A DNA stretch of 64,000 bases, taken from the NCBI GenBank assembly GCA_020444265.1, contig JAHLLH010000011.1, positions 26,290 to 90,289 on the forward strand, written 5' to 3'. Both the position numbers and the translations under genes were made by a program. Source of the stretch: a bacterium. GTDB lineage: Bacteria; Electryoneota; Electryoneia; Electryoneales; Electryoneaceae. Shown here piece by piece: positions 9,445 through 26,759 of the stretch (the stretch's first letter is position 1; the number at the start of each line of letters is the position of its first letter). The notes under the pieces were generated by a model that was given only the letters and a program-made list of their open reading frames with translations, did not search any database and had not been told where the DNA came from.

Positions 9445-10671
9445 ATGAGACTCTACTTCTCCCTGGCATGGCGAAACATATGGCGTAATAAGCGTCGAAG
9501 CCTGATCTCCATGTCTTCGATCCTCTTTGCCGTGATGCTGGCCATCATGTCCCGTTCGATGATGATTGGCACCTTCGAGCGCATGATCGACACCATCGTC
9601 GGCACCTTCAGCGGGTACATCCAGGTCCATCAGGAGGGCTATTTCGATTCCTCCAGCCTTGATGACATCTTTGTCCCTTCCTCTGACCTGCTCGCTCAGA
9701 TCGAAGGCACGGAACATGTCACCCTTGCTGTCCCACGTCTCGAATCCTTCGCGCTTGTTTCCAGCGGAGACAACACCAATGGTGCACGGATCATCGGGAT
9801 CGACCCGGCCAAAGAGGACCAGATGACTGCGATCTCGGAACGCATCTCAACGGGGTCCTACTTCACCGAAGCAAGCGAAGGGATCATCCTCGGCAGCGAG
9901 TTGGCGAAAGATTTAAAGAAGACGGTTGGTGATACAATTATTCTGCTCGGATCGGGTTATCACGGCATCACTGCAGCGGGCCGTTTCGTGGTCGAAGGCC
10001 TGGTCAGCTTTCCAGCTGACGAGATGAGCGCCGCGCTCGCCTACCTGCCCCTCCCGGTCGCGCAACACCTCTACGGAGTCGAGGAGGGCATCACAACCCT
10101 CGCGGTGATGCTGGATCACGCCCGCAACCTGGAGAGGGCACGGAATGCCCTTGAAGTAGTCTTGTCCGACGAGTACGAAGTCATCACCTGGAAGATGATG
10201 GTGCCGGAGCTGGATCAGCTCGTCCAGATGAAATATGTCGGTCAGGATCTCGTCCTGGCATTGATCTACATCGTCGTAGGGTTCGGCATTCTTGGCACTG
10301 TGCTGATGATGACCATGGAACGATTGCGCGAATTCGGCATGGTGACTGCACTCGGGATGAAGAAGCGTACCCTCGCGATTATTGTCCTGATCGAAAGCAG
10401 CCTGCTGACGCTTTCCGGGGCGATTGCTGCGATGGTCCTGACCATCCCGATTCTCGCAAAACTGCAGCAGGAACCAATCCAGCTGACAGGGAAGATGGCA
10501 GAAGGGTACGAAAGCTATGGGTTCGAGCCTGTACTGGCATTTACCCTGCACGCACCGATCTTTTTCTGGCAGACCTTCTTTGTTCTGCTGATTGCCCTGG
10601 TTTCTTCCAGTTACCCCTTCTTCCGTATCTCCAAGCTGAATTCGGTCGAAGCGATGCGTACGGGACACTAG
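9445..10671 (+). CDS. ABC transporter permease, FtsX family (MacB/LolC/E-like, single FtsX domain), paralog 1
   Basis: N-terminal LAWRNIWRNKRRS motif and TM1, a large periplasmic domain, and a C-terminal FtsX four-helix region ending LNSVEAMRTG. Confidence 0.85.
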   Translation: MRLYFSLAWRNIWRNKRRSLISMSSILFAVMLAIMSRSMMIGTFERMIDTIVGTFSGYIQVHQEGYFDSSSLDDIFVPSSDLLAQIEGTEHVTLAVPRLESFALVSSGDNTNGARIIGIDPAKEDQMTAISERISTGSYFTEASEGIILGSELAKDLKKTVGDTIILLGSGYHGITAAGRFVVEGLVSFPADEMSAALAYLPLPVAQHLYGVEEGITTLAVMLDHARNLERARNALEVVLSDEYEVITWKMMVPELDQLVQMKYVGQDLVLALIYIVVGFGILGTVLMMTMERLREFGMVTALGMKKRTLAIIVLIESSLLTLSGAIAAMVLTIPILAKLQQEPIQLTGKMAEGYESYGFEPVLAFTLHAPIFFWQTFFVLLIALVSSSYPFFRISKLNSVEAMRTGH

Positions 10672-10708
10672 TGAACTGTCTGTACCAAACACCAGATAGA
10701 GGCAGAGA

Positions 10709-11929
10709 ATGATTTTCAAACTGGCGTGGCGGAACATCTGGCGGAACAAGCGCCGAAGCATCATCTCGATCGCTTCCGTGCTCTTTGCCGTCACCATCGC
10801 CCTGATGATGCGCTCGATGCAGCTCGGCTTTTACGCGCGAACGATCGACAATGTGGTCAGTTTCTACACCGGCTACCTGCAGGTTCACGCGCCAGGCTAC
10901 GAGGAAAAGAAAAGCCTCGACAAGAGCTTTGCCGATTCGGGTGAACTGGCCACCAGGATCGAGGGGATCAACAAGGTCACCTTTACCGCTCCCCGTCTCG
11001 AATCCTTCGCCCTGATTTCGGCGGGGGACATCACAGATGGTTCCCAAGTCATCGGCATCGACCCGGAACGAGAGGATCAGCTCACCGGCCTTTCCAATAA
11101 GGTCGAGGATGGCCGTTACCTGAATGCGGGAGACAACGGCATCCTGCTCGGATCGGGACTGGCGAAACACATGAAGATTGGTGTCGGGGATACGGTCGTG
11201 GTGATCAGTTCTGGTTATCACGGTGTTTCGGCTGCGGGCCGTTACCCGGTCATTGGAACTGTCACCTTCCCAACGCCTGAACTGAACTCGACTATGGCCT
11301 ACCTGGATCTGCCGGAAGCGCGATGGTTCTACGGCGCGACCAACCGGCTGACCTCCCTGGCTATCATGATCGAGGGAGAACGTTTCCTCAACCAGGTGGA
11401 AACTCAAGTGACTGCGATGTTGGGGGACGATTACGAAGTCGTTTCCTGGGAAGATATCATGCCGGAAATGGTAGAGTACATCGCAATGGACAATGCCTCC
11501 GGTGTGTTGATGCTGATCCTGATCTATGTCATTGTCGGTTTCGGGGTATTGGGTACGGTCCTGATGATGACCATGGAACGGATGCGCGAATTCGGTGTGC
11601 TGGTCGCGGTCGGCATGCAGAAAAGTGTCCTTCGCGGGATTGTCCTGTTGGAGAGTGTCATCCTCTCCATCAACGGTGCGATTCTCGGAATTGTGCTGGC
11701 ACTCCCCTCGCTTATCTGGCTTCGAGCCAATCCAATTCACTTGACAGGGGCGGGTGCGGATGCCTTGATCAGCTATGGCTTCGAGCCGATCCTGCCCTTT
11801 TCGATGGCACCGGAAATCTTTTTCTGGCAGACATTTACCGTGCTGCTGATCGCACTGACAGCTTCCGCTTATCCCCTCTTCCGCATCACCAAGCTCAATT
11901 CGGTGGATGCGATGCGGACGGGCAACTGA
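10709..11929 (+). CDS. ABC transporter permease, FtsX family, paralog 2 (highly similar to paralog 1)
   Basis: It has the same architecture as paralog 1, with N-terminal KLAWRNIWRNKRRS and C-terminal KLNSVDAMRTGN. Confidence 0.85.
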   Translation: MIFKLAWRNIWRNKRRSIISIASVLFAVTIALMMRSMQLGFYARTIDNVVSFYTGYLQVHAPGYEEKKSLDKSFADSGELATRIEGINKVTFTAPRLESFALISAGDITDGSQVIGIDPEREDQLTGLSNKVEDGRYLNAGDNGILLGSGLAKHMKIGVGDTVVVISSGYHGVSAAGRYPVIGTVTFPTPELNSTMAYLDLPEARWFYGATNRLTSLAIMIEGERFLNQVETQVTAMLGDDYEVVSWEDIMPEMVEYIAMDNASGVLMLILIYVIVGFGVLGTVLMMTMERMREFGVLVAVGMQKSVLRGIVLLESVILSINGAILGIVLALPSLIWLRANPIHLTGAGADALISYGFEPILPFSMAPEIFFWQTFTVLLIALTASAYPLFRITKLNSVDAMRTGN

Positions 11930-11977
11930 TACGAACTTGCGGGCCTGCGGGCTCGCTCAACGATACGAGGACTTCTC

Positions 11978-13192
11978 ATGATCTGGTCCATCGCCTGGAG
12001 AAATGTCTGGCGGAACGGCAAACGTAGCGGGATCCTGATTGGCGCGATCGCCTTCGGGATCTGGGCCGGGCTGCTGATGGTGGCCTTGATGAATGGCATG
12101 GCGGAACAGCAGGTGAAAGCGGCGATTGAAACGCGCACCTCGCACATCCAGATCCACTCCGAGGGCTTCCGCAGCCACCGTGACATTAAATCCATCATCC
12201 CGCAGGGCGACTCCCTGCTGACGGCGGTTCGCAACATGGATGAAGTCGTTGGTGCCGCCGAACGTGCGGTGTTGACTGCCATGGCCTCATCCGCCACGAC
12301 CGGCAGCGGAATTCAGCTGATCGGCATCGACCCGGATGCCGAAAAACAGGTGACCGATGTTTACACCAAAGTGATCGAGGGGGACTACTTCGAAACGAAG
12401 AAACGGAACCCTGTGATCATCGGAAAAGAACTGGCAGACAAGCTCGGTGTCCAGCTTGGTAAGAAAATCGTGCTGACCGGGCAGGCGAAGGATGGGTCCA
12501 TCGCCGCCGGCGCCTTCCGTATTGTCGGCATCTACCAGACGGTCAACTCGATGTATGACGAGATGACAGTCTTTGTGAAACGATCCGATGTGGCAAAGAC
12601 GTTCGGTATCGGGGATGATGTCCATGAAATCGCCATCGTGGTCAACGGAATCGCAGCAATTGACCCGGTAGCGAAAACCTTACGCGACAGCAATCCTTCA
12701 CTCGAGGTTGCCACCTGGCGTAACCTCTCCCCGGAAGTCGCCCTGACCAAGGATTCGACCGCCCAGATGAACGAGATATTTATGATCGTCATCCTGATCG
12801 CCCTGATCTTCGGGATCACCAACACGATGCTGATGGGGGTGCTCGAACGGATGCGTGAGCTGGGTGTCATCATCGCGCTGGGCATGAAACATGGGATGAT
12901 TTTCCTGATGGTGCTGCTGGAAACAGTCTTCCTCTCCCTGGTTGGCGGCCTGCTGGGAATCATCCTCGGTTGGGGAACAGTGGAATTACTGGGCAAGTCG
13001 GGCATTGACCTGTCAGCAGTTTCCTCCGGGCTGGCAGCGTTCGGGATGGATACGGTAATCTACCCGCAGATGGCGGCCTCGGAATACCCGGTTGTCGTTT
13101 TTCTGGTCATCATCACCGCGATTGTCGCGTCGATCTACCCGGGCTTGAAGGCGATCCGTCTCAACCCGATTCAGGCAATCCGGACGTATTGA
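11978..13192 (+). CDS. ABC transporter permease, FtsX family, paralog 3 (more divergent)
   Basis: N-terminal IAWRNVWRNGKRS and C-terminal FtsX domain ending RLNPIQAIRTY. Confidence 0.8.
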   Translation: MIWSIAWRNVWRNGKRSGILIGAIAFGIWAGLLMVALMNGMAEQQVKAAIETRTSHIQIHSEGFRSHRDIKSIIPQGDSLLTAVRNMDEVVGAAERAVLTAMASSATTGSGIQLIGIDPDAEKQVTDVYTKVIEGDYFETKKRNPVIIGKELADKLGVQLGKKIVLTGQAKDGSIAAGAFRIVGIYQTVNSMYDEMTVFVKRSDVAKTFGIGDDVHEIAIVVNGIAAIDPVAKTLRDSNPSLEVATWRNLSPEVALTKDSTAQMNEIFMIVILIALIFGITNTMLMGVLERMRELGVIIALGMKHGMIFLMVLLETVFLSLVGGLLGIILGWGTVELLGKSGIDLSAVSSGLAAFGMDTVIYPQMAASEYPVVVFLVIITAIVASIYPGLKAIRLNPIQAIRTY

Positions 13193-13214
13193 CAAGGTTG
13201 TCAGACAGTGTTGT

Positions 13215-13240
13215 GTCAGGTCGGGAGACCTGACGGAACA
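13215..13240. repeat. Intergenic hairpin element E2 (GTCAGGTC-GGGA-GACCTGAC-GGAACA)
   Basis: Same core as E1 and E3. Confidence 0.45.
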
Positions 13241-13283
13241 GAAGAAACACACAAGCGAACAGTCTATATAGGGAGTACGACCC

Positions 13284-13970
13284 ATGGCGGTCATCAAAAC
13301 AGATCATCTGAGCCGTGTCTATGAAGACCACGGCGTGCCTGTCAAAGCGGTTGACGATGTCAGTTTGTCAATTGAAGAGGGTGAATTCACGGCGATTGTC
13401 GGGCCCTCCGGTTCAGGCAAAACGACCTTCCTGAACATGGTCGGTGGTCTCGATGCGCCGAGTTCCGGTACCATCGAGGTGGATGGCAAGCAGATCAGCC
13501 AGATGAAACAGAACGAACTGATCGGCTTCCGTCTGCGACACATTGGATTCGTCTTTCAGGCCTACAACTTGATCCCGGTTTTGACGGCGAAGGAAAATGT
13601 TGAGTTCATCATGCTGCTGCAGAAGAAGAGCAAGGCGGAACGTGACAAACGTGCCACCGAGCTTCTCGATGCGGTCGGTCTTGGGGATCGACTGGGACGC
13701 CGTCCCCATGAGCTCTCCGGCGGTCAGCAGCAGCGCGTTGCAGTCGCACGTGCCCTCGCTTCGATGCCCTCGTTTGTGCTGGCCGACGAGCCCACCGCGA
13801 ACCTCGACTCGACCAGTGCGGAGAACCTGCTCGACATCATGGAACGTCTCAACAAGGAACAGAAGATGACCTTTGTCTTCTCGACCCATGACCCCCGAGT
13901 TGTCGCGCGTGCGCATCGTGTCGTTACCCTGCGTGATGGTGCCATTGAATCGGATGAAACCCGGTCCTGA
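13284..13970 (+). CDS. ABC transporter ATP-binding protein (LolD/MacB-type ATPase)
   Basis: Walker A GPSGSGKTT, signature LSGGQQQRVAVARAL, Walker B FVLADEPT. Confidence 0.9.
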   Translation: MAVIKTDHLSRVYEDHGVPVKAVDDVSLSIEEGEFTAIVGPSGSGKTTFLNMVGGLDAPSSGTIEVDGKQISQMKQNELIGFRLRHIGFVFQAYNLIPVLTAKENVEFIMLLQKKSKAERDKRATELLDAVGLGDRLGRRPHELSGGQQQRVAVARALASMPSFVLADEPTANLDSTSAENLLDIMERLNKEQKMTFVFSTHDPRVVARAHRVVTLRDGAIESDETRS

Positions 13971-15184
13971 TGATGAGACGGTTACGACTGCTACTAAGCG
14001 TCGCCCTGCTGGTGACAACCCTTCCGGCAGTCGCGGCCAGCCTGGATGATCTCGATTTCCGTGGCTATGTCCGCGAGACGGCTCTTTTCTGGAAGTTGCC
14101 GGCCTACTTGAGTACATCTGGTGCCGAAGAACAGCAGTTTACCAACCTGCTGCATACGCGTCAGAACCTGCGCTGGTATGCCAACATGGAGTTGACCTTT
14201 GGCTTTGAGCTGAAAACACGTCTCTTCAGCGGTGATGCTGTCCAGGCGATGCTCGCACAGACCGAACAGCTCGGTGGCAACCAGAGTTTGTTCAACTGGG
14301 AACGCCGATTTGTTGACGAGAACAACCAGCTGCTGGTCAGCGGCATTGACCGCGCATGGGCGGATTATTTTCTCGGCGATTGGCAGGTGACGGTGGGTCG
14401 TCAACGGATCGCGTGGGGCTCCACGATGGTCTGGAACCCAACCGACATCTTCAATCCCTCCTCCCCCATCGACTTTGACAACGAGGAGAAACCGGGTAGC
14501 GATGGGATCCGTGTCCAGCGCTATCTCGGCACCAACTCGAAGCTTGAACTGGCTTACGCATCCACCGATCTCGAGGATTCGGACGCTTCCACGGTCGCGG
14601 GACGTGTGCTTATCAATGCCTTCGATTTCGACTGGAACGTGCTGTTGGGCATGAAGGAAGGCAATACGATGTTTGGCGGAGGGTTTGAGGGCGATATCCT
14701 CGGAGGTGGCTTCCGTGGTGAAGTCTTGTACCGTGTCCACCAGCAGGAGGAAGAAGCACCGGACGGTGCCCCTCCCAGCCCCCGGGACCTGCCCAGCTAT
14801 ATCCGCTTCGCCATCGACGGGGATTACACCTTCACCAACTCGCTCTATCTGCACGCAGGGGTGCGCTACAACGAACTCGGGGCAACGAAGGATGCAGGAT
14901 CGTTGACCAACCAGTTCAAATCCTTCGAGAACCAGTGGCTCTCCCCAGCTCGTTGGTCGCTCTTCGGCCAGGTGGGTGGCAATGCAACCCCGTTGATGCG
15001 CCTTGATCTGATGGCCATCGTCAACCCGCAGGATGGCTCGTTTTACATCGGCCCTTCCGGCAGTTACTCGCTGATCACCAACCTCGACCTGATCCTGACC
15101 GGGTTGGTTTTTCAAGGCGAGGACGGCACCGAATTCGGTGCCCAGGGGACCATCCTGATGGGTCGGCTGAAGTACTCGTTCTGA
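13970..15184 (+). CDS. Putative outer-membrane beta-barrel protein (last gene of the ABC operon)
   Basis: It has a signal peptide LLLSVALLVTTLPAVAAS and alternating amphipathic beta-strand composition. The C-terminus ...GRLKYSF ends in an aromatic Phe, typical of OMPs. Confidence 0.45.
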   Translation: MMRRLRLLLSVALLVTTLPAVAASLDDLDFRGYVRETALFWKLPAYLSTSGAEEQQFTNLLHTRQNLRWYANMELTFGFELKTRLFSGDAVQAMLAQTEQLGGNQSLFNWERRFVDENNQLLVSGIDRAWADYFLGDWQVTVGRQRIAWGSTMVWNPTDIFNPSSPIDFDNEEKPGSDGIRVQRYLGTNSKLELAYASTDLEDSDASTVAGRVLINAFDFDWNVLLGMKEGNTMFGGGFEGDILGGGFRGEVLYRVHQQEEEAPDGAPPSPRDLPSYIRFAIDGDYTFTNSLYLHAGVRYNELGATKDAGSLTNQFKSFENQWLSPARWSLFGQVGGNATPLMRLDLMAIVNPQDGSFYIGPSGSYSLITNLDLILTGLVFQGEDGTEFGAQGTILMGRLKYSF

Positions 15185-15210
15185 TTGGATTTCGATCTGG
15201 AACTGAGTGG

Positions 15211-15238
15211 CCCGACTTGCTCGCAAGTCGGGTTTATT
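15211..15238 (+). terminator. Intrinsic terminator after the outer-membrane protein gene
   Basis: CCCGACTTGC-TCG-CAAGTCGGG perfect stem followed by TTTATT. Confidence 0.6.
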
Positions 15239-15345
15239 CATAGAGATAAATGCGTGAGGTCTTCGGACCTGACGCAACCAGTATGTATCCAATGTAGAGG
15301 ATGGGCAACGCCCATCGACCGTATCGCGTTCAGACGCGAAACAGC

Positions 15346-15460
15346 GTAGGCCGGATTCTTGAATCCGGCAAAGAAGAAGGGGCCTCAGGGCCCCTGACAC
15401 CTTGTCGAATGGAACGTCATGGCACGCCATGACAACGCCGGATTCAAGAATCCGGCCTAC
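15346..15460. repeat. MITE-like palindromic element, copy R1 (~115 bp): terminal 20-bp palindromes GCCGGATTCTTGAATCCGGC / GCCGGATTCAAGAATCCGGC flanking an internal GGGGCC-N-GGCCCC hairpin
   Basis: The second copy (16985-17092) is in the same orientation. Together the two copies bracket the EEP-family gene. Confidence 0.55.
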
Positions 15461-15616
15461 ATCTTCGTGCCCTGAGGCGCGGGAAGGAAAGAGAGAAAGG
15501 ATAAACCCGGGCCGCAGGCCCGGGCCAGGCTTTACAACTAGGCTCAGCATTCTCGCAAAATGAAGAAACCCGGGCAACAAGATTGCCCGGGCCAGAATCA
15601 TCCAATCATCGGTCAT

Positions 15617-16768
15617 CTACTTCACAATCACCGCACGCTTCACCTGGCTGTGGGGACCAGCCTCGAGACGAACAAAATAGATCCCGGTAGGAAGTCCGAC
15701 AGCATTCCAGCTCAGCTTGCCCGTCGTGTTGGTCACATCCCACTGCCGTACCTGACGACCCAATACATCGAACAGTTGCACCGAAGCCTCGCCACGCAAC
15801 GGCAGGCTGTAGCCGATGGTCACCATCGCATTGGCCGGAACCGGCCAGACACTCAGCTGGGATTCGGCGGGTTGGGCAACCCCATCTTCAGCCACCCCCA
15901 ACAGGGCATCGGTCGGGAAATAGGTGGCGACGGGACGATGGTCCGAGATGTAGTTCTCGTACTGACTGTATTCATCCTCCAGGTGCAGCACCTCTGTTTC
16001 GCCATACTCGGTGAAGTCAGCATAGAGAGCGTCTGTCACCATGAGGTGATCGTAGAAGAACCCCGCAGGAATCCAGGTGCCCCCATCGCCACCACCATCA
16101 ACGATCGGCAAGGTCAGGAAGTGAAAATCGGGGTCATCCAGCATCGGGGTGAAAACATTGGTGCTCGAGGGATCATCCAAATCGTCATTCCAGTCGCCGA
16201 CGAGCATCCAACGGTCATTGCCATCGTCGATCTGACGACCTACCCAGGCATGCAGCGAATCGACCGCTTCGGCGCGACGGGCCCGGTCATCGGAGTCATT
16301 CCGGCCCGCTTTCAGATGGAAAACCATGAAGTTGAAGGAAAGGGTGTCCTCCGCTTCGACCATGGTCACCGGCACCACCAACGGCGCACGTGGGAAAGGA
16401 TAGGAGTAGCTGGTGTAGATCTCGTAAGAGCTGCCAACCTCCACCTTGTCGGCATCGTAAAGGACCGCGTGACGTAAGCCATAGTAGTCCTCACCAATCA
16501 CCGTCCCCCACCCTCCGGCATTGGACGCGACCGAACGTAGCGCATCATCGTCCGTAATCTCCTGGCAGCCAATCAATTCGATCTCGAGATCATTGATCAT
16601 CAGGGAAAGAGCGTTGACAGTCTGGGCCGCATCGGGGAACTGACGGATGTTCCAGGTGGCAACATCAAAGGTGAGGTCGCTGCCATGCTGCTCGACAAGC
16701 TGCGCAGAGACTGGCAGGGCAACGGCAATCAACATCAGAACGGCGAGAATGAGACGATTTTGTGCCAT
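15617..16768 (-). CDS. Secreted endonuclease/exonuclease/phosphatase (EEP) family protein with a T9SS C-terminal sorting domain
   Basis: Signal peptide plus EEP motifs (WNIRQF, GDWN, SDHRPV). The C-terminal tail GIYFVRLEAGPHSQVKRAVIVK is a Por_Secre_tail. Confidence 0.8.
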   Translation of the reverse strand: MAQNRLILAVLMLIAVALPVSAQLVEQHGSDLTFDVATWNIRQFPDAAQTVNALSLMINDLEIELIGCQEITDDDALRSVASNAGGWGTVIGEDYYGLRHAVLYDADKVEVGSSYEIYTSYSYPFPRAPLVVPVTMVEAEDTLSFNFMVFHLKAGRNDSDDRARRAEAVDSLHAWVGRQIDDGNDRWMLVGDWNDDLDDPSSTNVFTPMLDDPDFHFLTLPIVDGGGDGGTWIPAGFFYDHLMVTDALYADFTEYGETEVLHLEDEYSQYENYISDHRPVATYFPTDALLGVAEDGVAQPAESQLSVWPVPANAMVTIGYSLPLRGEASVQLFDVLGRQVRQWDVTNTTGKLSWNAVGLPTGIYFVRLEAGPHSQVKRAVIVK

Positions 16769-16984
16769 GATCGTGCAGTCCTCTTGGAATCGGAATCGTC
16801 CTTCAAGGTAGGCCGGGTGGTAGAGGGGTTCAAGCCGGGGAAGAAAGGCCGTCTCTCGATTGTACAGTGGTCCGACTCTGAAGTGTCGGGTCTCTTCAGA
16901 ATGGGGAGCAGCGTTCCTCCTTATAATCGATGAAACTCGACACTGAAGAGTCGAGCCAAATGCAGGCCGGTCTAATCTGCATGT

Positions 16985-17092
16985 GGCCGGATTCTTGTAC
17001 CAGGCAAAAAAAGGGGCCCGAAGGCCCCTGACACATTATAGATGGATCGCCCGGCATCCGCCGGACCTCGCCGGATTCAAGAATCCGGCCTA
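16985..17092. repeat. MITE-like palindromic element, copy R2 (left terminus partly degenerate)
   Basis: It shares GGCCGGATTCTTG...AAGGGGCC-CGAA-GGCCCCTGACAC...CGCCGGATTCAAGAATCCGGCCTAC with R1. Confidence 0.55.
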
Positions 17093-17099
17093 CGCTCAT

Positions 17100-19181
17100 C
17101 TACTTCATCAACACCATCTTGCGGACCTTGCTGACGTCGCCGGAGGTCAGCTTGTAGAAGTAGACTCCGCTGGGCAGATCATCCGCGAGGAAGGTGATGG
17201 TATGGTTGCCCGCGCTCATGCCACGTTCAACCAGTGTCGCCACTTCTCGTCCCAACAGATCATAAACCGCCAGCTTCACCTGCCCGGCCTGACGCAGGTT
17301 GAAAGCAATCTGCGTACTCGGGTTGAAGGGGTTCGGGTAATTCTGTCCGAGCTCGAACTGATCCGGCTGCAGTGTGTTGGAGTGGCCGACGCTGTTGTCG
17401 CCGAAGAAGCCATTCCACTGCCAATCATCCGGATCCACCCAGTAGCCGGTGGAATCCCGCATCATCGGATAGTTCACCTGCCACTGCTGCCGTTCCTCGA
17501 AGATGTCGATCATCATCTGTTTTGAGAGACGGTGATAGACCATCGGGTTCTCGAGGATTTCGCCAACCGGGGCTGAACTGGAGACACCAACACCCGGGTC
17601 CCGGTCGACCATGTAGAGCAGGTGCAGATAATCACCATGACTGGTCGGTGCGATCGAGGGGCTGATCTCGCTGCGGCTGTCGCCGGGAGGCGCACCGCCA
17701 CCTTCAGTCCAGATCGTATTGGTGATGTTCACACCCTTCGCCCAACGAAGACCATTAAACTCGCCGGGGGGCGATGCAGAAACGTAGATGTCGCCATTCG
17801 CCTTGATTCCGCCTTGCCCGTAATCGGCTGTATCCGGTGCGGAGCTGATCTTACGGTAGGTACACCAAAGGATGCCCGTTTCGGGATCGTGGTAGAGGCT
17901 TGGGCGGTCGACCAGGCTGCCCCAGGCTTCCGATTGACCAACATCAAACTCGCTGTTCTCGTCAATCTGGGAGTAGACAGGATTACCACTTTCGTCCTGC
18001 ATCCAGTGGTAGAGACGGGCAGCATAGTACCGTGTATCCTCGAGGCCATCATAGATCGCCGACGTAAACGCGACATGAAGCTGATCATCACTGTCGTAAA
18101 TCACACTCCCATCGGTGTAGGGACGAAGTGTATCACCCAGGGCGGCGAGGGTGTCCGGGTAAAGATCCGGGTCCGGGCCGATGTGCGAGGTCACTTCAAT
18201 CGGGTTTTCCTGGTCCCAGGTCGCGCCCGCGTTGGTAGACTCGAAGACCCAGAAGTCATTGTTCCACTGAGTCCCCTCTCCGTCGCCGACCACTTCACCA
18301 ATTGTCGATTCACGCGCCATCACCAACCCGATCGCCACACGCTGTCCATCCGACGATGTAGTGATATCGCCCGAAATATTCATGTCTCCATCGGTGATCA
18401 GCACCTGCAAATCGTTGGGCGTCGCCTCGGCAAATTCCGGCACATTTGGATCGTACAGCCAACGCATGTAGGTGATTTCCATCGGATCGGCGTTATCGTC
18501 ACGCTGGTCATGCGAGATGATGTGCGCGTGCTGGGTCGCCGGGCTGAAGGTCGAATGGGGCCAGATGTGTGCACGTGTCCCATACTCTGGCGCAGCGTAC
18601 ATGTCATAGAAACCGGTCACAAACTCGCTTTCCAACGCAATCACACTCGCCGTCTCAGCACCCGCCGTCGCATCGTAATGGAAGGTGGGATAGGTGACAC
18701 CAGCAGCGTAATCAAAGGCGATCGTCGTATATCCGCTGCGATTGCCGGTATCGACATCACCTGTGGTTTCGTGGATGTACCAGCCAGCGCCATCGTCCGT
18801 CAGACGGACAAACTGAACGTGACGGCTGTTGCTGGTCACGCTGCCATAGAGCTTCGTAAAGATGATGTGCACTTCGGCTGGATTCTCGGCGGCATCACCG
18901 GGGAAGAAGCCAATCATACGGCTCACCTGCCCGTTGTGCTGCTGGTCCCAGTAGGAGGTGCCGACAATCATCGTGTCGCCGATGATCTCGTTCAGTTCGT
19001 TATGCGACCGGAATGATCCAGTCCAGGGGGCGAGGTCAGGGTTGATCACCACATCGTGCGAACCATCCTCCGATGCGGTAGGGGTGCGTTCGTACTCCAC
19101 CGGCGAGCCGAACGCTACCAGACCGATCAATAAAACCCATACCAATGACAATACCAGTCGTTGCATGTTCCCTCCGTACAT
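17100..19181 (-). CDS. BNR/Asp-box repeat secreted protein with T9SS C-terminal sorting domain, paralog 1 of 5
   Basis: Signal peptide. The conserved N-terminal motif is DTMIVGTSYWDQQHNGQVSRMIGF. Asp-box motifs are present (STNAGATWDQEN). The conserved C-terminal tail is FNPSTQIAF...YDLLGREVATLV...SGVYFYKLTSGDVSKVRKMVLMK. Confidence 0.8.
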   Translation of the reverse strand: MYGGNMQRLVLSLVWVLLIGLVAFGSPVEYERTPTASEDGSHDVVINPDLAPWTGSFRSHNELNEIIGDTMIVGTSYWDQQHNGQVSRMIGFFPGDAAENPAEVHIIFTKLYGSVTSNSRHVQFVRLTDDGAGWYIHETTGDVDTGNRSGYTTIAFDYAAGVTYPTFHYDATAGAETASVIALESEFVTGFYDMYAAPEYGTRAHIWPHSTFSPATQHAHIISHDQRDDNADPMEITYMRWLYDPNVPEFAEATPNDLQVLITDGDMNISGDITTSSDGQRVAIGLVMARESTIGEVVGDGEGTQWNNDFWVFESTNAGATWDQENPIEVTSHIGPDPDLYPDTLAALGDTLRPYTDGSVIYDSDDQLHVAFTSAIYDGLEDTRYYAARLYHWMQDESGNPVYSQIDENSEFDVGQSEAWGSLVDRPSLYHDPETGILWCTYRKISSAPDTADYGQGGIKANGDIYVSASPPGEFNGLRWAKGVNITNTIWTEGGGAPPGDSRSEISPSIAPTSHGDYLHLLYMVDRDPGVGVSSSAPVGEILENPMVYHRLSKQMMIDIFEERQQWQVNYPMMRDSTGYWVDPDDWQWNGFFGDNSVGHSNTLQPDQFELGQNYPNPFNPSTQIAFNLRQAGQVKLAVYDLLGREVATLVERGMSAGNHTITFLADDLPSGVYFYKLTSGDVSKVRKMVLMK

Positions 19182-19423
19182 GTCCTGCCCGAATCCTCGG
19201 ATTCAGGCTATCCAGCGGGGATAGCGACCCTTCTCGACCGGCTCATCGTGTGGGGGTCCATCATAAGAGAAACGGGGATGGGAGGAAGCGGACGCTTGGT
19301 TTCGTCCACTTCCCCTCATCCCCGGCTCTGGGGTCTTGCACAGGTAAAATAGGGGTCCGTTACGGCATAGAGCAACGCATGCGGCACATTCAACAAAAGT
19401 TACCCGGGTCAATAAAAAAGGGG

Positions 19424-19449
19424 CTGCCGAAGCAGCCCCATTGAATCGC
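19424..19449 (-). terminator. Intrinsic terminator downstream of BNR paralog 2
   Basis: On the minus strand, a GGGGCTGC-TTCG-GCAGCCCC hairpin followed by a U-tract. Confidence 0.6.
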
Positions 19450-19464
19450 TCAAGAAAGGCGACG

Positions 19465-21513
19465 TTACTTCATGAGGATCATCTTGCGGACCTTGGTGGA
19501 TTCACCAGAGGTCAGCTTGTAGAAGTAGACGCCACTGGGCAGGTCGTCGGCCATGAAGCTGACCTGGTGGCTGCCCGCACCCATCGCACGGTTCACGAGG
19601 GTGGCCACTTCACGACCGAGCAGGTCGTAGACCGCCAGCTTGACGTTTGCAGACTTGTTCAGGCTGAAACGAATCTGGGTGCTCGGGTTGAAGGGGTTCG
19701 GGTAGTTCTGCTCAAGCTGGAACTCGTTCGGCTTGAGGGTGCCGTCACCTTCAACACTGTTGTCACCGAAGAAGCCGTTCCAGGCCCAGTCATCCGGATC
19801 CTGGAAGAAGCCGGTGCTGTCGATGTGCATCGGGTAGTTCGGCAGCCAACCGTCGAACATGTCGATCAACTCCTGCTTGTTCGCCTTGTGATAGACGACG
19901 GGGCAGAGGGTGGCTTCGGTGTCGGTGGCACGATCCGGCCAGGTGTCGATGACGTACATGAAGTGCAGGAAGTCGCCATCGCTCTGCAGCGCAATGCTGG
20001 GATCGATTTCGGACTGCGCATCACCCGGGGCCATCGCATCGTCCGACAGCCATTTGGTGTCGGTCAGGTTGATCGGCTGGGTCCAACGCAAACCATTGTA
20101 CTCTCCGGGGGGAGAAGCCGTCAGGTAGACTTCACCACAGGCATACTCACCGGCAAAGTCGGTGGTGTCCGGGTTGTCGCCAAAGTTACTCGTGCGACGA
20201 TAAATCGCCCAGAGAATACCGGTGTCCGGGTCGCTGTAAAGGCTCGGACGGTCAGCGGTTTCACCGAAGACCTCGGGACGGCCCATGAAGCCTTCCGTAC
20301 CATCGGCCATCAGGGTGTACATGCCGCTTTCACGGTCCCAATGGAAGATGCGGCTGGTGTAGGTAATCGTACCCTGGAACTCGAAATATTCCGGGGTCGT
20401 GAAGGCCGCATGCAGGTTGTCTTCGAAGTCATACAGGACGGTTCCGTCCATGTAGCAACGGAGGGTGTCCTTGTTCGCCGCGGTGGTGTCGGGCAGCAGG
20501 TCGCCATCCGGCGGAATCCACTGGGTAACATCAAGCGGCTCGCCCCAGGTGGCGCCACCATCGGTGGACTCCCACAGCCAGAGGTCGTTGTCCCACTGAG
20601 TCGCCTCTTCACCTTCACCGATGGTGTAGAAACGCGGCATGGTTTCCGTATAGGCAACCATCGAACCGTCGCTGCTGGTGTGGATGTCGGACGAGTTGTT
20701 CATGCCGACTTCCGTCATCAGCACCTGCTGATCGTTCGGGACGGCAGCGGTCAGGACATTGTTTGCCGGGTCGTACAGCCAACGCATGTAGTACTTCTTG
20801 GTCGCATCGGCGGCACCAGCCGGGAAGTCGCTGTTGATCTGATGGATGTAGTTCTCCGGGCCGAAGGTGCTGCGCGGGAAGAGAACATCGTTGTCCGTCG
20901 AAGCCGGATCCGGCGCGGCGAACAGATCGAAGAAACCAGGCACGAAGGTGGATTCAAGCGCCACTTTCGGTGCGTACGGTGTGCCGTCGCCCGAATCGTG
21001 GTGGAAGGTCGGGAAGGCTTTGTTGGTGGCAACATCAACACCCAACGTACCAAAGCCGGAACGACCCGAACCATTGTCCACACCATCCGTACCGATCACA
21101 TTGACGACCGGAGCATCGGTGGACGCATCGGCAACCTGGATGTACATGATGTGACGCGACGCACTTGCCGCATCAAAACCACGCATATAAATCATGTGGA
21201 CCATGTCCTGTTCGGGGACATAGCCAATCATACGCCCGTTCTGGGCGTTGTGCTGAATGTCGTACCAGGTGTAGCCGACATGCAGCGTATCACCCACCGC
21301 CTCATCAAGAGGATTCGGCACGGGGTTACGATACTGAACATCCTGTGTCTTCTGAAGTGCTTCAGTGCCGGTCAACGGCATGTCGTTGGAAATCGGCGCC
21401 TTTGCATCAAATGCGGACGCGACACCAGCGACGAGGAGCACCATCAGGGAGACCATTAACGCTTTACGCATACTCCCTCCAAATAACAACGTGAGTTTGT
21501 TTTTACTTCCCAC
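19465..21513 (-). CDS. BNR/Asp-box repeat secreted protein with T9SS CTD, paralog 2
   Basis: GDTLHVGYTWYDIQHN...; STDGGATWGE; C-terminal ...VYFYKLTSGESTKVRKMILMK. Confidence 0.8.
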   Translation of the reverse strand: MGSKNKLTLLFGGSMRKALMVSLMVLLVAGVASAFDAKAPISNDMPLTGTEALQKTQDVQYRNPVPNPLDEAVGDTLHVGYTWYDIQHNAQNGRMIGYVPEQDMVHMIYMRGFDAASASRHIMYIQVADASTDAPVVNVIGTDGVDNGSGRSGFGTLGVDVATNKAFPTFHHDSGDGTPYAPKVALESTFVPGFFDLFAAPDPASTDNDVLFPRSTFGPENYIHQINSDFPAGAADATKKYYMRWLYDPANNVLTAAVPNDQQVLMTEVGMNNSSDIHTSSDGSMVAYTETMPRFYTIGEGEEATQWDNDLWLWESTDGGATWGEPLDVTQWIPPDGDLLPDTTAANKDTLRCYMDGTVLYDFEDNLHAAFTTPEYFEFQGTITYTSRIFHWDRESGMYTLMADGTEGFMGRPEVFGETADRPSLYSDPDTGILWAIYRRTSNFGDNPDTTDFAGEYACGEVYLTASPPGEYNGLRWTQPINLTDTKWLSDDAMAPGDAQSEIDPSIALQSDGDFLHFMYVIDTWPDRATDTEATLCPVVYHKANKQELIDMFDGWLPNYPMHIDSTGFFQDPDDWAWNGFFGDNSVEGDGTLKPNEFQLEQNYPNPFNPSTQIRFSLNKSANVKLAVYDLLGREVATLVNRAMGAGSHQVSFMADDLPSGVYFYKLTSGESTKVRKMILMK

Positions 21514-21956
21514 AGTTCCCTACAAAAATCGGTCAAGCTGGTTTGTTCCTCCGGCTCGTTGTTTGTTTATCTCTCCCACACACTTTTTATCAATCCACGT
21601 TTTCCCCTAATGGAAACGCGATCAAATGCCTTGTAAACAGGTGAATCGTGTAGAGTACATCGAGAACTCCGCGCATGCAATATCAGGCGGAGGCTCGGAC
21701 CATCTTTCAAGCCTTGCGGGTAGGCTCTCGGTTGTTCCCTCTCTTTAATATATCGAAAACAACCCCCCTCTTCTACCTTCAAAACACTTCTCCCCCTCCT
21801 CTCCTCATCAGATAGAGCCCCAAATATCCCCTAACTCCGGCAATAAAAGCCTACTACACATCTTCCCTGCCCGATTCTGAACCAGGGGTACCGTTGTGAT
21901 ACAATCTCAAAGAAGAGAAGATAGAAATGATCTTACTACAGGATTAACAAGACATT

Positions 21957-21982
21957 AAAAAAGGGGCCGCCGAAGCAGCCCC
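21957..21982 (-). terminator. Intrinsic terminator downstream of BNR paralog 3
   Basis: AAAAAAGGGGCCGC-CGAA-GCAGCCCC (minus-strand hairpin followed by a U-tract). Confidence 0.55.
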
Positions 21983-22048
21983 TCTATTACTGGCTACCCA
22001 CGGACAATCCATGGACTGTCCTGGGCATAACAAGCGCCACGGCGATGA

Positions 22049-24103
22049 TCACTTCATCAGGATCATCTTGCGAACCTTCGAGACATCACCGGAGGTCAGC
22101 TTGTAGAAGTAGACACCGCTGGCCAAGTCGCTCGCGAGGAAGGAGACGCTGTGGTTTCCGGCGCTCATCGAACGATTCACCAGGGTCGCCACCTCACGGC
22201 CCAACAGGTCATACACCGTCAAGGAAACCTGGCCCTGGGCATGCAGCGTAAAATTGATCTGCGTGCTCGGGTTGAAGGGGTTCGGATAGTTCTGGTTCAG
22301 CTCGAACTGATCGGGCTGAAGGGTACGTCCCTCGGGGACCGACACATCCCAGAAACCATTCCATTCCCAGCCATTCGGGTCCTCATAGTACCCGGCACTG
22401 TCGATGTGCATCGGGTAATTGACGACCCATTCAGCATTCTCCTCGAATTGGGCCATCAGTTCCACTTTCGGGACACGATGATAGACCATCTGGTTCAGGG
22501 TCGCGACACCTTCTTCCTGGCCTGCGACTGCCGAAATGCCCGCCTCATAGTCCATGGTGTAGAAGAGATGCAGGTAAGGACCATCGCTGTTGTAGGCCAT
22601 GCTCGGGTCACGTTCTGTCTGGCTTTCACCCGGTTCCAGAGCATTTTCCATCAAGCGGGTATCGGTCACATTCACGCCTTTAGTCCAACGTAACCCGTTG
22701 TCCGGAGATGCGGCAACATAGACATCGCTGTTCGCATAGCCGGCCGCAGTCGCATCCAGCGGCCCACCATTCAGCGTGTCCCCCGGTTCCCCATACTGGC
22801 ACCAGCTCGCCCAGAGGACGCCTGTTTCCTCATCCTTGTAGAGGTTGGCATGGCACACGGTCAGCTCCCACGCCGCGGGCTGGGCACCATTCCAGAAGTC
22901 ACCATCCGCAATCTGGGAATAGACCTCGTTCTCGCTGTCCCAGTGCCAGAGACGACCATTCAGCGAGGATGCACCTGCGCTGCGGAAGAAGTCGAGGCTG
23001 AGGGTGTTGAATGCCGTATGAATCGTGTTGTCACCATCGATGATAACATCGACTTCGGAGTAGGCACGCAAGGTGTCCTTGTTGGCGGCTGAGGTGTCCG
23101 GCAGCAAGTCACCATCCGGAGCGATGAAACTGGTCACATTCTGGGGATTCTCCCAGTCCCAGGTATCGCCCCCATCATCGCTGGTCCACAGGTAAATATC
23201 ATTGTTGCTCTGGGATGCGCGGGATTCTGCCCAGTCATCTGGTCCTTCGCCCTGGAGGAAACGGCTCACCGATCCGGCAACAGCGATCAGGCTGCCATCG
23301 CTGTTGGATGCCGGAATAGTGGATAGAACGGCGGAATAGGTGGTGACAAACATGCTGTTCGCCCCGCCGGGTGTAGCGTTCGTCCAAAGACTACTCACGG
23401 GATCGTACAAAGCACGATGGTAGTAGACATTCTCCGAAATCAGATCCTCATAGCCATTGCTGATGATGTGCACGTACAGGCCACCATCATAGCGGGTCAC
23501 CACATGTTGCGGCCAGATAAAATCGCCACCATCAGGACGGGGGAGATCGTACGGATCGAAAAAGCCCGGCACGAAAATCGATTCGGTCATCAGGCTGGAG
23601 AAATAGCCGCCATTCGGGTCCGGCTGGTGCATCATGACGTAGGGCGCACCCTCTGTTGGGTCGAGACTGATCACCGGGTACCCGGCACCAGACACTCCCA
23701 CCTGCGCCGGGCTGCCTTCCTGACGGGTGACATCCCCCGCTGCATCGACAAACAGCTTGTAATAGGAGACGTTCCGAGACCCGGTTTCGGTCGGATGCTG
23801 GGTCCAGGTCAGATGAATGACCTTGTTGTCCTCGTCGCTATCATGGACCGCGATCAGGCGGGTAAACCCGGCATTGTGCTGCTGATCGCGCCAGTTGCTG
23901 CTGAGGTGCAACGTGTCGCCGACCATATCGTCCAGCTCATCGCTGAAGAGAAACGGCCCCTCCAGGCCCTGCCCTGACGGCGTGCCATAGCCGGCATTGT
24001 TGTGGTTCTTTTCGGCGGACCAGGCCGGAGTCTGGCTGGCTGGCGATGGTCCAGCAACCAGAACCATCCCCAGTATCAATACAATCCCTAACACGTTCTT
24101 CAT
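22049..24103 (-). CDS. BNR/Asp-box repeat secreted protein with T9SS CTD, paralog 3
   Basis: GDTLHLSSNWRDQQHN; SDDGGDTWDWEN; SPDNGLRW; C-terminal ...VYFYKLTSGDVSKVRKMILMK. Confidence 0.8.
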   Translation of the reverse strand: MKNVLGIVLILGMVLVAGPSPASQTPAWSAEKNHNNAGYGTPSGQGLEGPFLFSDELDDMVGDTLHLSSNWRDQQHNAGFTRLIAVHDSDEDNKVIHLTWTQHPTETGSRNVSYYKLFVDAAGDVTRQEGSPAQVGVSGAGYPVISLDPTEGAPYVMMHQPDPNGGYFSSLMTESIFVPGFFDPYDLPRPDGGDFIWPQHVVTRYDGGLYVHIISNGYEDLISENVYYHRALYDPVSSLWTNATPGGANSMFVTTYSAVLSTIPASNSDGSLIAVAGSVSRFLQGEGPDDWAESRASQSNNDIYLWTSDDGGDTWDWENPQNVTSFIAPDGDLLPDTSAANKDTLRAYSEVDVIIDGDNTIHTAFNTLSLDFFRSAGASSLNGRLWHWDSENEVYSQIADGDFWNGAQPAAWELTVCHANLYKDEETGVLWASWCQYGEPGDTLNGGPLDATAAGYANSDVYVAASPDNGLRWTKGVNVTDTRLMENALEPGESQTERDPSMAYNSDGPYLHLFYTMDYEAGISAVAGQEEGVATLNQMVYHRVPKVELMAQFEENAEWVVNYPMHIDSAGYYEDPNGWEWNGFWDVSVPEGRTLQPDQFELNQNYPNPFNPSTQINFTLHAQGQVSLTVYDLLGREVATLVNRSMSAGNHSVSFLASDLASGVYFYKLTSGDVSKVRKMILMK

Positions 24104-24285
24104 TCAATCCCTCCTTGCGGGGCCTTGCGGAAGTTTCCCGTTGCCCACGGACCATCGTCCAGATGGACGGCCATCCCTGTACCCCGGGTTGAAAAGCGGG
24201 GCCTCGGTTTTCTCGGTACCTGAATAGTAAAACAATCGGGCGAAATCGGGCAACAGAATCTGCCGAAAACATGGAAAAACAGACG

Positions 24286-24311
24286 AAAAAAGGGGCTGCC
24301 GAAGCAGCCCC
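24286..24311 (-). terminator. Intrinsic terminator downstream of BNR paralog 4
   Basis: AAAAAGGGGCTGC-CGAA-GCAGCCCC. Confidence 0.6.
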
Positions 24312-24359
24312 TTTGAAAATCTGGATACCCGCGGCCAGTCCACTGGACTGTCCTGGGCA

Positions 24360-24383
24360 TAACCATCGCCATGGCGATGGTTA
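24360..24383. repeat. Perfect 24-bp palindrome TAACCATCGCCATGGCGATGGTTA overlapping the stop codon of BNR paralog 4
   Basis: Read directly from the sequence. The TAA stop is the complement of 24381-24383. Confidence 0.6.
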
Positions 24384-26522
24384 CTTCATCAGGATCATCT
24401 TGCGGACCTTCGAGACATCACCGGAGGTCAGCTTGTAGAAGTAGACACCGCTGGCCAAGTCGCTCGCGAGGAAGGAAACCGTGTGGCTTCCTGCGCTCAT
24501 CGGACGGTTCACCAGGGTAGCTACCTCACGGCCCAGCACATCATAGACCGTCAGCTTGACCGCACCCGCTGCCTGCAGGTTGAAGCTGATCTGCGTGCTC
24601 GGGTTGAAGGGGTTCGGGTAGTTCTGGTTCAGCTCGAACTGGTCGGGACGCAAGGTGGTCGTCGGTTCGTCAACAGAAGTCAGCCCATCCCAGGCCCAAT
24701 CCTCCGGATCAACCCAATAATCGGTCGAGTCAACGTGGATCGGGTAGTTGCGGATCCACTCGGCCTGCTCATTCATCACATCGATGATGTCGCTCTTCAG
24801 GACGCGCTGGTAAATCAGCTGGCCTTCCGTTTGGACACCTTCTTCCCAGGTGTAGGAACGGCCACCATCACGATCCTGCAGGTAGAAGAGATGCAGGAAG
24901 TCGCCGTTTACATTCTCGGCAAGGCTGGGGTGGATTTCACTACGGCACTCGCCAGCCGCGATACCACCCGCCAAGGCTGTTTCGAGGCTGGTGTCACGTG
25001 TATTGGTCACATTAACCGGCTTGGCCCAACGCAACCCATCCGGGCTGAGAGAAACATAGATGTCTGCCAAGGCGTAGTTGCCACCTGTAGAACTGGTGGA
25101 CTGGGCAAAATCGACAGGCGTCCAGAATTCCTCGCCATCTTCCGTGTAATGCAAGGTGTCATCCACTTCACCATACTGCGACCAGGCCGCCCAGACCCAA
25201 CCGGTGTTCTCGTCCACACCGAGCTGGCACTGGTTGGTAAAGGTCTGCCAGGCACCCGGGACCACGCCATTCCAGATACGGTCCTGCATCTGGACACAGA
25301 GGCTGTCACGGCTGTTCCAGTACCACATGCGCGCGGAGTAGGAGGATTCACCCTCGGAACGGACGAAATCAATGAACGGGGTGGTGAAGGTGACATGCAC
25401 AATACCTTCATTGTCCACCAGGCAGTTCACGTCCGCATAAACACGCAACGTGTCACCATTCGCAGCGAGAGTATCTTCCGCCGAACCGGGCAGCAGATCG
25501 AGGTTCGGATCGATAAAATCAGTGATGTTCAGCCCGTTTTCCCAATCCCAGGTTGCTCCGCCATCCTCACTCGTCCAGAGGTAGACATCGTTGCAGGTCT
25601 GGGAGATACGGGACCCTTCGAAGAAGCCGTTATCCTCGCCATCTTTCAGGTGACGGCTGACAGGAAGCACAATCGCGACAACACCCGATTCGTCATTCGC
25701 CGAAACCGCACCCTCGACATCTTCGTTGTACTCGGAGACGATCACCTGCGGGTTGGTGCCGGGTGTGGCGTTCTCGTACGAAGGATTGTCATCCACCCCG
25801 TTGATCTGCATCCTGTTGTAGAAGGTGTACTTATCGAACGGGTTGTCCTCTTCACTGGAGAAGTTGACGGTGTGGGCATAGAGCTGGCCTTCCACTTCCT
25901 GCAGTGCCATCGAGGGCCAGACCGCCTGAGCGGTGTTGTTGTACCGCTCGACCCACTGGTAATCGAAGAAACCTTCGACCCACTGGGATTCACGCATCAC
26001 AGACGGGTCCCACAACGCATCTCCGAACCCATTCTGGGAATGGAGCCCGATGAAGGGGTTGGTCGCCGAATCAATGTCGAGGACCGGGTAGCCGTCCAGG
26101 GCCTCACCAACATTAGACGGAAGCCCATTGACAACAAGTTCACCCTCATCATTTTCGAAAATCATGATGTAGTGTGTCAGACGACCGGCGCTTATTGTCG
26201 CATGCTCCTGCCATGTCAACTTCACCACACCATCCGGGTATGCCGGATCATCTTCGGTGTAGGCCAGGAATCGTGTGTTTGAGCTTGTGCCAAGCTGGTC
26301 ACGCCAGGTGGTAGAGATCGCGAGGGTATCCCCCATCATCTCATCCAACTCACTCGGCATGAAACTGCGAAGCGGGATGCCATTACCCGCAGGCGGGTTC
26401 CCCGATGGATCGGCGAGACGATTGAACTGGTCGGTGCCAGTTGGTGCAGGGGCAAATGGGGCTGCAACCGCCGTCCCACTGATCAGCAATAACGCGATCA
26501 GCGTCATCTGTACAACTTTCAT
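24381..26522 (-). CDS. BNR/Asp-box repeat secreted protein with T9SS CTD, paralog 4
   Basis: GDTLAISTTWRDQ; SEDGGATWDWEN; SPDGLRW; C-terminal ...VYFYKLTSGDVSKVRKMILMK. Confidence 0.8.
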   Translation of the reverse strand: MKVVQMTLIALLLISGTAVAAPFAPAPTGTDQFNRLADPSGNPPAGNGIPLRSFMPSELDEMMGDTLAISTTWRDQLGTSSNTRFLAYTEDDPAYPDGVVKLTWQEHATISAGRLTHYIMIFENDEGELVVNGLPSNVGEALDGYPVLDIDSATNPFIGLHSQNGFGDALWDPSVMRESQWVEGFFDYQWVERYNNTAQAVWPSMALQEVEGQLYAHTVNFSSEEDNPFDKYTFYNRMQINGVDDNPSYENATPGTNPQVIVSEYNEDVEGAVSANDESGVVAIVLPVSRHLKDGEDNGFFEGSRISQTCNDVYLWTSEDGGATWDWENGLNITDFIDPNLDLLPGSAEDTLAANGDTLRVYADVNCLVDNEGIVHVTFTTPFIDFVRSEGESSYSARMWYWNSRDSLCVQMQDRIWNGVVPGAWQTFTNQCQLGVDENTGWVWAAWSQYGEVDDTLHYTEDGEEFWTPVDFAQSTSSTGGNYALADIYVSLSPDGLRWAKPVNVTNTRDTSLETALAGGIAAGECRSEIHPSLAENVNGDFLHLFYLQDRDGGRSYTWEEGVQTEGQLIYQRVLKSDIIDVMNEQAEWIRNYPIHVDSTDYWVDPEDWAWDGLTSVDEPTTTLRPDQFELNQNYPNPFNPSTQISFNLQAAGAVKLTVYDVLGREVATLVNRPMSAGSHTVSFLASDLASGVYFYKLTSGDVSKVRKMILMK

Positions 26523-26759
26523 GGTTACCTCGTGCTTTTCCCTCTTTCCCTATCCAATGGATGTAGAGGCCTCCCTCAAGGCCACACATACTCGTAACGT
26601 TTGTACGGGATGAGGATTTCCGGCTCACTCTGCGGGGGTACGACTCATTGTTCATCATCAAAATACCCCCAAACCCCATCATTCGCAAGCGGCTCAAGCT
26701 CTCTTCCTACGGATTCCCATCAGCCACGCAATTCGTGACACGGCACGTTTCCAGAATAG

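Follow-up and report, generated by a model that had tools for sequence, protein, structure and literature searches.

Repetitive extragenic palindromic (REP) elements are palindromes of 20 to 50 nt preceded by a conserved tetranucleotide, usually GTAG, and are often paired with an inverted REP in bacterial interspersed mosaic elements (BIMEs); the HUH transposase that acts on them in single-stranded form, called TnpA-REP or REP-associated tyrosine transposase (RAYT), is usually present in one copy and needs the GTAG (PMC8266576). GTAG repeats typically have stems of 6 to 9 bp and loops of 2 to 3 nt that often fit the pattern TY, commonly form head-to-head (HH) dimers around conserved spacers of 20 to 100 bp that may contain small stem-loops, and lie mostly downstream of open reading frames (ORFs), with unidirectional or convergent genes on either side (Di Nocera et al. 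2013, PMC3733652). In that 2013 survey, GTAG repeats were found in Proteobacteria, Cyanobacteria, Chloroflexi, and the Planctomycetes-Verrucomicrobia-Chlamydiae (PVC) group only (PMC3733652). Inverted doublets that fold into hairpins have been proposed as the replicative unit, the REPIN (Bertels & Rainey 2011, PMC3116915), and roles of REPs in termination and mRNA 3'-end stabilization have also been proposed (PMC3733652, PMC8266576). Here, we describe two elements, R1 and R2, in a 64-kb stretch of contig JAHLLH010000011.1 (64,000 nt, hereafter the window) from a candidate lineage of the Fibrobacteres-Chlorobi-Bacteroidetes (FCB) group, in which GTAG REPs have not been described. We favor, with moderate confidence, the reading that R1 and R2 are REP HH dimers of the REPIN/BIME type, with a built-in, oriented, predicted terminator, at the 3' ends of two adjacent genes. 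The two elements probably add a new member, possibly of low copy number, to the GTAG-REP/REPIN kind.

R1 (15346..15460, unstranded) is a complete REP HH dimer, with two arms of 24 nt that are complementary at 24 of 24 positions and a structured spacer of 67 nt between them (i.e., GTAG-GCCGGATTCTTGAATCCGGC, the spacer, and GCCGGATTCAAGAATCCGGC-CTAC). The left arm (15346..15369, plus strand) consists of the GTAG tag and the palindrome GCCGGATTC-TT-GAATCCGGC, and the right arm (15437..15460, minus strand) likewise reads as GTAG plus palindrome on the minus strand. R2 (16983..17093, unstranded) is a second copy in the orientation of R1 and begins 6 nt past the stop codon of the gene that we call paralog 1, the first of an array of genes with a type IX secretion system (T9SS) tail. 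The right arm of R2 (17070..17093, minus strand) is intact. Its left arm (16983..17005, plus strand; GT-GGCCGGATTCTTGTACCAGGC) is decayed, with a tag that has lost its A (GT-G) and three substitutions in the palindrome. The GTAG tag thus stands immediately 5' of the stem in three of the four arms (both arms of R1 and the right arm of R2). A sequence-only reading of this DNA had described two direct copies of one element bracketing a minus-strand gene of the endonuclease/exonuclease/phosphatase (EEP) family at 15617-16768, and this arrangement was borne out. Its description of the termini as palindromic holds for both arms of R1 and the right arm of R2 but not for the left palindrome of R2, which is degenerate and folds no better than shuffled sequence (z = 0.2).

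At a threshold of up to 3 mismatches, the core 20-mer occurs at 4 places in the window (7 strand matches), compared with 0.01 expected by chance, and the spacer motif GGGGCC-N4-GGCCCCTGACAC occurs twice, compared with 0.05 expected. The right arms of R1 and R2 are identical at 25/25 positions, the spacers at 42/66, the left arms at 18/24, and either flank at 1/10. The drop from 25/25 in the right arm to 1/10 in the flanks indicates that the repeated unit ends exactly at the GTAG...CTAC inverted-repeat termini. No third copy was detected within the window by repeat finding, blastn-short, or nhmmer. A target-site duplication, for which a check had been proposed, was found at neither copy (flanking bases AGC/ATC for R1 and CAT/GCT for R2). 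The perfect direct identity of the right arms over 25 nt could, in principle, serve as a substrate for deletion.

An intact arm on its own is predicted to fold into an unpaired GTAG followed by a stem of 8 to 9 bp with a TT loop (DNA, -8.6 kcal/mol; z = -5.1). When the arms of R1 pair with each other, a long hairpin results (RNA, -77.7/-77.8 kcal/mol, z about -11; single-stranded DNA, -44.1, z = -9.6). The corresponding hairpin of R2, whose arms are 64 nt apart and complementary at 18 of 21 positions (86%), is weaker than that of R1, and the z scores of the whole-element folds range from -9.6 to -11.4 for R1 and from -4.9 to -6.8 for R2. The spacer contains two further hairpins, both assigned to the minus strand. 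The first is GGGGCC-N4-GGCCCC in R1 (15378..15395), followed by TTCTTCTTT (15377-15370) and intrinsic-terminator-like, and GGGGCC-TTCG-GGCCCC in R2 (17012..17029), followed by T7 (17012-17006); written in the form of an intrinsic terminator, these are AGGGGCCCTGAGGCCCCT then TCTTCTTT in R1 and AGGGGCCTTCGGGCCCCT then T7 in R2. The second is a variable hairpin, GTCATGG-CACG-CCATGAC in R1 (15416..15433) and, in R2 (17049..17066), a stem that has 7 bp on the minus strand, one of them a G.U pair, and only 5 bp on the plus strand. Its sequence differs between the two copies, and its pairing is kept in both. The earlier account of the spacer was therefore right about the GGGGCC hairpin but incomplete, as it left out this additional inner hairpin. 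In a consensus scan, the GGGGCC hairpins scored as predicted terminators on the minus strand only. Rfam gave no match at gathering thresholds in the window, and sub-threshold matches in 15100-17300 were at chance level only. Taken with the lack of a target-site duplication, the extragenic 3' location, and an extra copy in a relative (both described below), the GTAG tag, the 9-bp stem with its TT loop, the inverted arms 64 to 67 nt apart, and the structured spacer match GTAG-REP HH dimers, and the earlier suggestion of a MITE/BIME-like element (MITE, miniature inverted-repeat transposable element) is upheld in its BIME-like form.

Both elements are extragenic. R2 lies between two minus-strand genes, EEP and paralog 1 (17100..19181, minus strand), the 3' end of which adjoins R2, and R1 lies in the convergent intergenic region between EEP and a plus-strand gene for a protein of 404 amino acids (aa) (13970..15184). 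The nearby genes able to read into R1 or R2 (i.e., EEP and paralog 1) are all on the minus strand, the strand on which the spacer terminators are predicted. The R2 inner hairpin is the sole recognizable terminator-like site 3' of paralog 1, and R2 occupies the position at which relatives and the other paralogs carry plain terminators: paralogs 2 to 5 each end in GGGGCYGC-TTCG-GCRGCCCC-T5-6, which in paralogs 3 to 5 is preceded by one or two small hairpins. If transcription stops at the T-run of R2, the RNA is predicted to end in a REP-arm hairpin, the variable hairpin, and the terminator followed by U7, three hairpins in all. The claim that the elements provide the terminators of the adjacent genes thus stands for R2 and paralog 1; it fails for R1, since two terminator-like hairpins of EEP (15567-15593 and 15504-15526, minus strand) and a plus-strand terminator of the 404-aa gene itself come first. 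Both EEP hairpins are kept in the Logan contig L017, which encodes an EEP protein 86% identical to that of the window and covers neither R site. With its oriented terminator, the element could assume 3'-end formation wherever a copy stands behind a gene.

These observations also bear on an alternative in which R is a fixed 3'-end or terminator cassette that arose once, was copied once locally by gene conversion or template switching, and was kept by the host, with no transposase, for transcription termination or mRNA 3'-end protection. We regard this explanation, the main rival, as unlikely, although several features suit it. Only two copies were seen, 1.6 kb apart, and the inner terminator GGGGCC-TTCG-GGCCCC resembles the paralog terminators GGGGCYGC-TTCG-GCRGCCCC. 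The decayed arm of R2 is the distal one, which lies beyond the termination point and outside the RNA, and the variable hairpin pairs better on the transcribed strand by means of its G.U pair. However, exact ends at the inverted-repeat termini on either side would be surprising for a random local duplication, and R1 has two perfect arms even though transcription, with two good terminators ahead of it, is expected to reach it only rarely. The GTAG tag is also left unexplained by a cassette of this type.

Further evidence on the arms came from a relative, L028 (ENA ERZ23491051), in which the ortholog of the 404-aa protein is 82.5% identical and is followed by a third R copy at the site equivalent to that of R1. 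After the stop codon of this gene come a terminator, TATCCAGT, GTAGGCCGGATTCTTGAATCCGGCAAAAGAGAAGGGGCCCG, and the contig end. The L028 arm is identical to the R1 left arm at 24 of 24 positions (37 of 41 positions match overall). Fourfold-degenerate sites of the gene adjoining this R copy are 57.5% identical, and at that neutral rate the identity of the arm has a P of about 2e-6. The arm is therefore constrained as a sequence and not only as a hairpin; the variable hairpin is an example of structure-only constraint. As judged from these sequences, at least two lineages carry the R family, and their divergence is at species level or beyond. The conserved position of R1 in L028, with its arm unchanged, would also be expected of a host-kept cassette, but hairpin function alone would tolerate compensatory changes of the kind seen in the variable hairpin, and the arm sequence is invariant. 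Differences from L028 were also noted beside R1 itself. The sequence GTATCCAATGTAG (15285-15297) matches L028 GTATCCAGTGTAG (L028 2062-2082), which directly adjoins the R arm there. In the window, 48 extra nt with two small hairpins (15298-15345) stand between the GTAG of GTATCCAATGTAG and the GTAG of R1 and look like an insertion beside a GTAG. Just upstream (about 15236-15284), the window and L028 differ by a second indel, which is ~48 nt long and contains a hairpin.

Constraint on sequence could also reflect operator or architectural sites, at which the 20-bp palindromes bind a dimeric protein and regulate or insulate EEP (e.g., by looping). The arms are near-perfect 20-bp palindromes conserved far past neutral expectation, and four such sites bracket one gene. 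We nevertheless consider this very unlikely: the repeated unit is the whole 110 nt with spacer and terminator and not the palindromes alone, one of the four palindromes is decayed, their positions (217 to 324 nt upstream of the EEP start, or downstream of EEP) are not those of a promoter, the region yielded no promoter-like site, and the EEP orthologs in two relatives (L018 and L027) have no such palindromes.

Comparison with the relatives also separated the history of EEP from that of R. The EEP protein (MCB2200717.1, encoded on a contig of 133.7 kb) has the Pfam domains Exo_endo_phos and Por_Secre_tail (a T9SS C-terminal sorting domain), in agreement with its earlier annotation as a T9SS-tailed nuclease/phosphatase; its gene is resident and lies outside the repeat unit. 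In L018 (ENA), EEP and the 404-aa ortholog are both 68% identical to those of the window and have the same convergent arrangement; there is no R1 in the 326-nt spacer between them, and the contig ends before the R2 site. In the distant relative L027 (NCBI GCA_020444425.1; EEP 40%, pilD 45%, and paralog 48% identical), a paralog is followed by EEP on one strand with a plain terminator alone between them, and R is absent at both sites. Four JGI contigs (L021 to L024), in which the locus is syntenic and the orthologs of paralog 1 and the 404-aa protein are both ~64% identical, contain neither EEP nor any R-like sequence; four paralogs are directly followed by a convergent gene for 412 aa. The EEP-less junction of L021 (10629-11014) holds several ordinary terminators and a local repeat, GAACGCGCTKAGTAACTGTCAC, which occurs twice and has an inverted partial copy. 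In sum, R occurs at the R1 site of L028, is missing from the R1 site of L018, and is missing from both sites in L021 and in L027, a distribution that fits gain or loss; polymorphism among close strains was not observed.

Direct repeats with palindromic ends around a single gene suggest a cargo or cassette gene, as in a composite transposon or an integron, and the absence of EEP at the syntenic L021 locus would suit this idea. The sequence-only reading had raised element-mediated acquisition of EEP, but the adjacency of paralog and EEP exists without R in L027, that of EEP and the 404-aa gene exists without R1 in L018, and no R remnant is left at the L021 junction. Because synteny is kept without R in these three relatives, the cargo explanation is not supported. 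Moreover, the bracket also encloses an upstream region and two terminators that belong to EEP, and the window contains no integrase or transposase. We consider cargo status largely refuted and scarcely credible. On this synteny, EEP has long resided beside the 404-aa gene and the paralog array, the R elements were apparently added later, and the L021 lineage has apparently lost EEP with no R copy left behind. The R repeats do not mark EEP as horizontally acquired. A more specific candidate, an integron cassette with attC sites, was rejected as well. The attC core sites are RYYYAAC (R'') and GTTRRRY (R'), with an integron integrase or a cassette array nearby. The R termini (GTAGGCC...GGCCTAC) differ from these cores, the window has no integrase, and the neighbors are conserved chromosomal genes.

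Several results weigh against the REP-doublet reading and keep our confidence in it moderate. Only two copies are present in 64 kb, and no transposase, integrase, or RAYT (Y1_Tnp) was found by Pfam among the ~46 ORFs of the window. Scans for exact 20-mers in one genome per GTDB species and in metagenome contigs gave scattered single matches in unrelated organisms, at chance level; with an exact 24-mer (GTAG plus palindrome) on viral contigs included, the scans yielded 13 scattered single matches or none. A plasmid collection searched with blastn gave no match. L025, which comprises ~18 kb probably from the same genome, contains no R copy, although its tetranucleotide profile (r about 0.9) is matched by that of the related species L021 (r about 0.9) and the same genome is not separable from a related one on this basis. 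Overall identity between R1 and R2 is only 82%, whereas a family that is actively spreading has near-identical copies, and since the L028 copy shares the intergenic site of R1, long conservation in place by the host fits at least as well as mobility. On the other side, group 4 RAYTs are common in Chlorobia, a class of the FCB group, and the 16-mers that flank group 1 and group 4 RAYTs number only ~12 to 14 per replicon (PMC5581495), which makes a low-copy family in an FCB lineage plausible. Apart from these counts, one match of the metagenome scan (L012, RRZT013049906.1, 119-216) is an HH GTAG dimer with the same 20-nt palindrome, an unrelated spacer, and a partly degenerate second arm, on an unrelated contig that contains the Neisseria DNA-uptake sequence GCCGTCTGAA.

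Four Logan contigs from this organism cover R1/R2 or adjacent genes, namely L014 and L015 (window 15567/15578-17089), L016 (6068-15454), and L020 (17064-19707), and all four end inside hairpins, including both R right arms. For Logan assemblies, k = 31 was assumed. R1 and R2 share no 31-mer, and L014 and L020 overlap by just 26 nt, which is less than k-1. We rejected these contig ends as evidence of multiple copies, since breaks also occur at ordinary nonrepeated hairpins, and we infer that they stem from coverage lost at hairpins. In metagenome assemblies from short reads, elements of this type are thus prone to truncation or omission.

If R1 and R2 are REP dimers, a REP doublet of roughly 110 to 115 nt would have been added to two neighboring intergenic regions in this FCB-group lineage. 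The arms may be held constant by a sequence-specific protein that reads them, most likely an HUH tyrosine transposase of the RAYT/TnpA-REP type with a single gene elsewhere in the genome, and an enzyme of this type would copy the doublet via single-stranded DNA. A doublet landing 3' of a gene would take over 3'-end formation through its oriented terminator, as R2 appears to have done for paralog 1, and EEP would have become bracketed incidentally, through two insertions into the 3' regions of adjacent genes, and not as a means of moving EEP. One may go further and picture a portable terminator, i.e., a REPIN doublet with a terminator in its spacer that is spread by a RAYT and kept by the host as a replacement for native terminators. 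Such retention would explain why the arm is unchanged across species-level divergence, but we hold this extension to be doubtful.

The window is otherwise an ordinary stretch of chromosome from an FCB-group lineage, and the nearest named relatives are Calditrichota, Zixibacteria, TA06, and WOR-3. Among the ~46 ORFs, Pfam identified a type IV pilus operon, MacB/FtsX ABC transporters, a class I (Trp/Tyr-type) tRNA synthetase, a pterin-binding (folP-like) enzyme, and a carboxyl-transferase (accD-like) subunit. The array that begins with paralog 1 (17100-28905) comprises five tandem paralogs of 680 to 715 aa with a T9SS tail, no other Pfam domain, and 35 to 48% mutual identity, belongs to a small family (24 database hits), and has the type IV pilus genes pilB, pilC, and pilD directly upstream of it. 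This pilus-paralog linkage is kept in L021/L022 and in L027, although L021 has no equivalent of paralog 4. Perfect 24-nt palindromes, TAACCATCGCCATGGCGATGGTTA and TAACAATCGCCATGGCGATTGTTA (24360-24383 and 26797-26820, with a similar one at ~22028-22051), enclose the stop codons of paralogs 4 and 5 and precede the shared terminator GGGGCYGC-TTCG-GCRGCCCC. On the other side of EEP, 9445-15184 contains three tandem MacB/FtsX permease paralogs, an ABC ATPase, the 404-aa protein, and TetR and LolA-like genes, and is syntenic in L021; the 404-aa protein has no Pfam match and hundreds of homologs across FCB-group metagenome-assembled genomes. A recurring hairpin of the form CCCGAC-loop-GTCGGG(C)CAC occurs in the window at 15210-15232 (the terminator of the 404-aa gene) and at 16872-16893 (upstream of EEP), and a hairpin of this type is also found upstream of EEP in L017 (1-24) and L018 (about 14-45). 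An unrelated hairpin of ~115 nt (61267-61381) lies in the convergent intergenic region between a PEGA-domain gene and an FtsX/MacB gene; it is single copy in the window, its 23-nt arms are 91% complementary, its interior is almost fully paired, and its RNA fold has an energy of -71 to -75 kcal/mol (z = -5 to -6).

If confirmed genome-wide, R1 and R2 would extend GTAG-REP/REPIN systems to an uncultured FCB-group lineage and would provide a clean case in which the spacer of a REP doublet is a functional-looking terminator, i.e., a mobile repeat used for mRNA 3'-end formation. Among known systems, R is most similar to REPINs and GTAG-REP HH dimers, with which it shares inverted GTAG palindromes with the tags outermost, a conserved, structured spacer of 20 to 100 nt, a whole-unit hairpin, arms that are better conserved than the spacer, an extragenic location downstream of ORFs, and the lack of a target-site duplication. 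It differs from them in its two copies in 64 kb, the lack of a nearby RAYT, and the complete, oriented, predicted intrinsic terminator in its spacer, and its FCB-group host differs from the hosts of GTAG repeats in the 2013 survey. With the REP/BIME sequences of Escherichia coli (y-type; crystallized REP GTAGGACGGATAAGGCGTTTACGCCGCATCCG, PMC3479197), R shares the tag and stem foot (GTAGGnCGGAT...ATCCG) and the pairing of REP with inverted REP. This likeness extends over about 16 nt and is a resemblance, not demonstrated homology; the R stem is short and perfect with a 2-nt loop (group-3 style), whereas the E. coli stem is long, bulged, and required by its transposase. Like MITEs that derive from insertion sequences with a DDE transposase, R is a small, noncoding, precise duplication unit with terminal inverted repeats, but it has no target-site duplication, each of its termini is itself a GTAG-tagged palindrome, and no parent insertion sequence with matching ends was seen. 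Finally, the spacer hairpin resembles intrinsic (Rho-independent) terminators in its GC-rich stem of 6 to 7 bp, its 4-nt loop, its T-run, and its position on the transcribed strand; unlike plain intrinsic terminators, it is set between conserved 24-nt inverted arms and is repeated with these arms as one unit.

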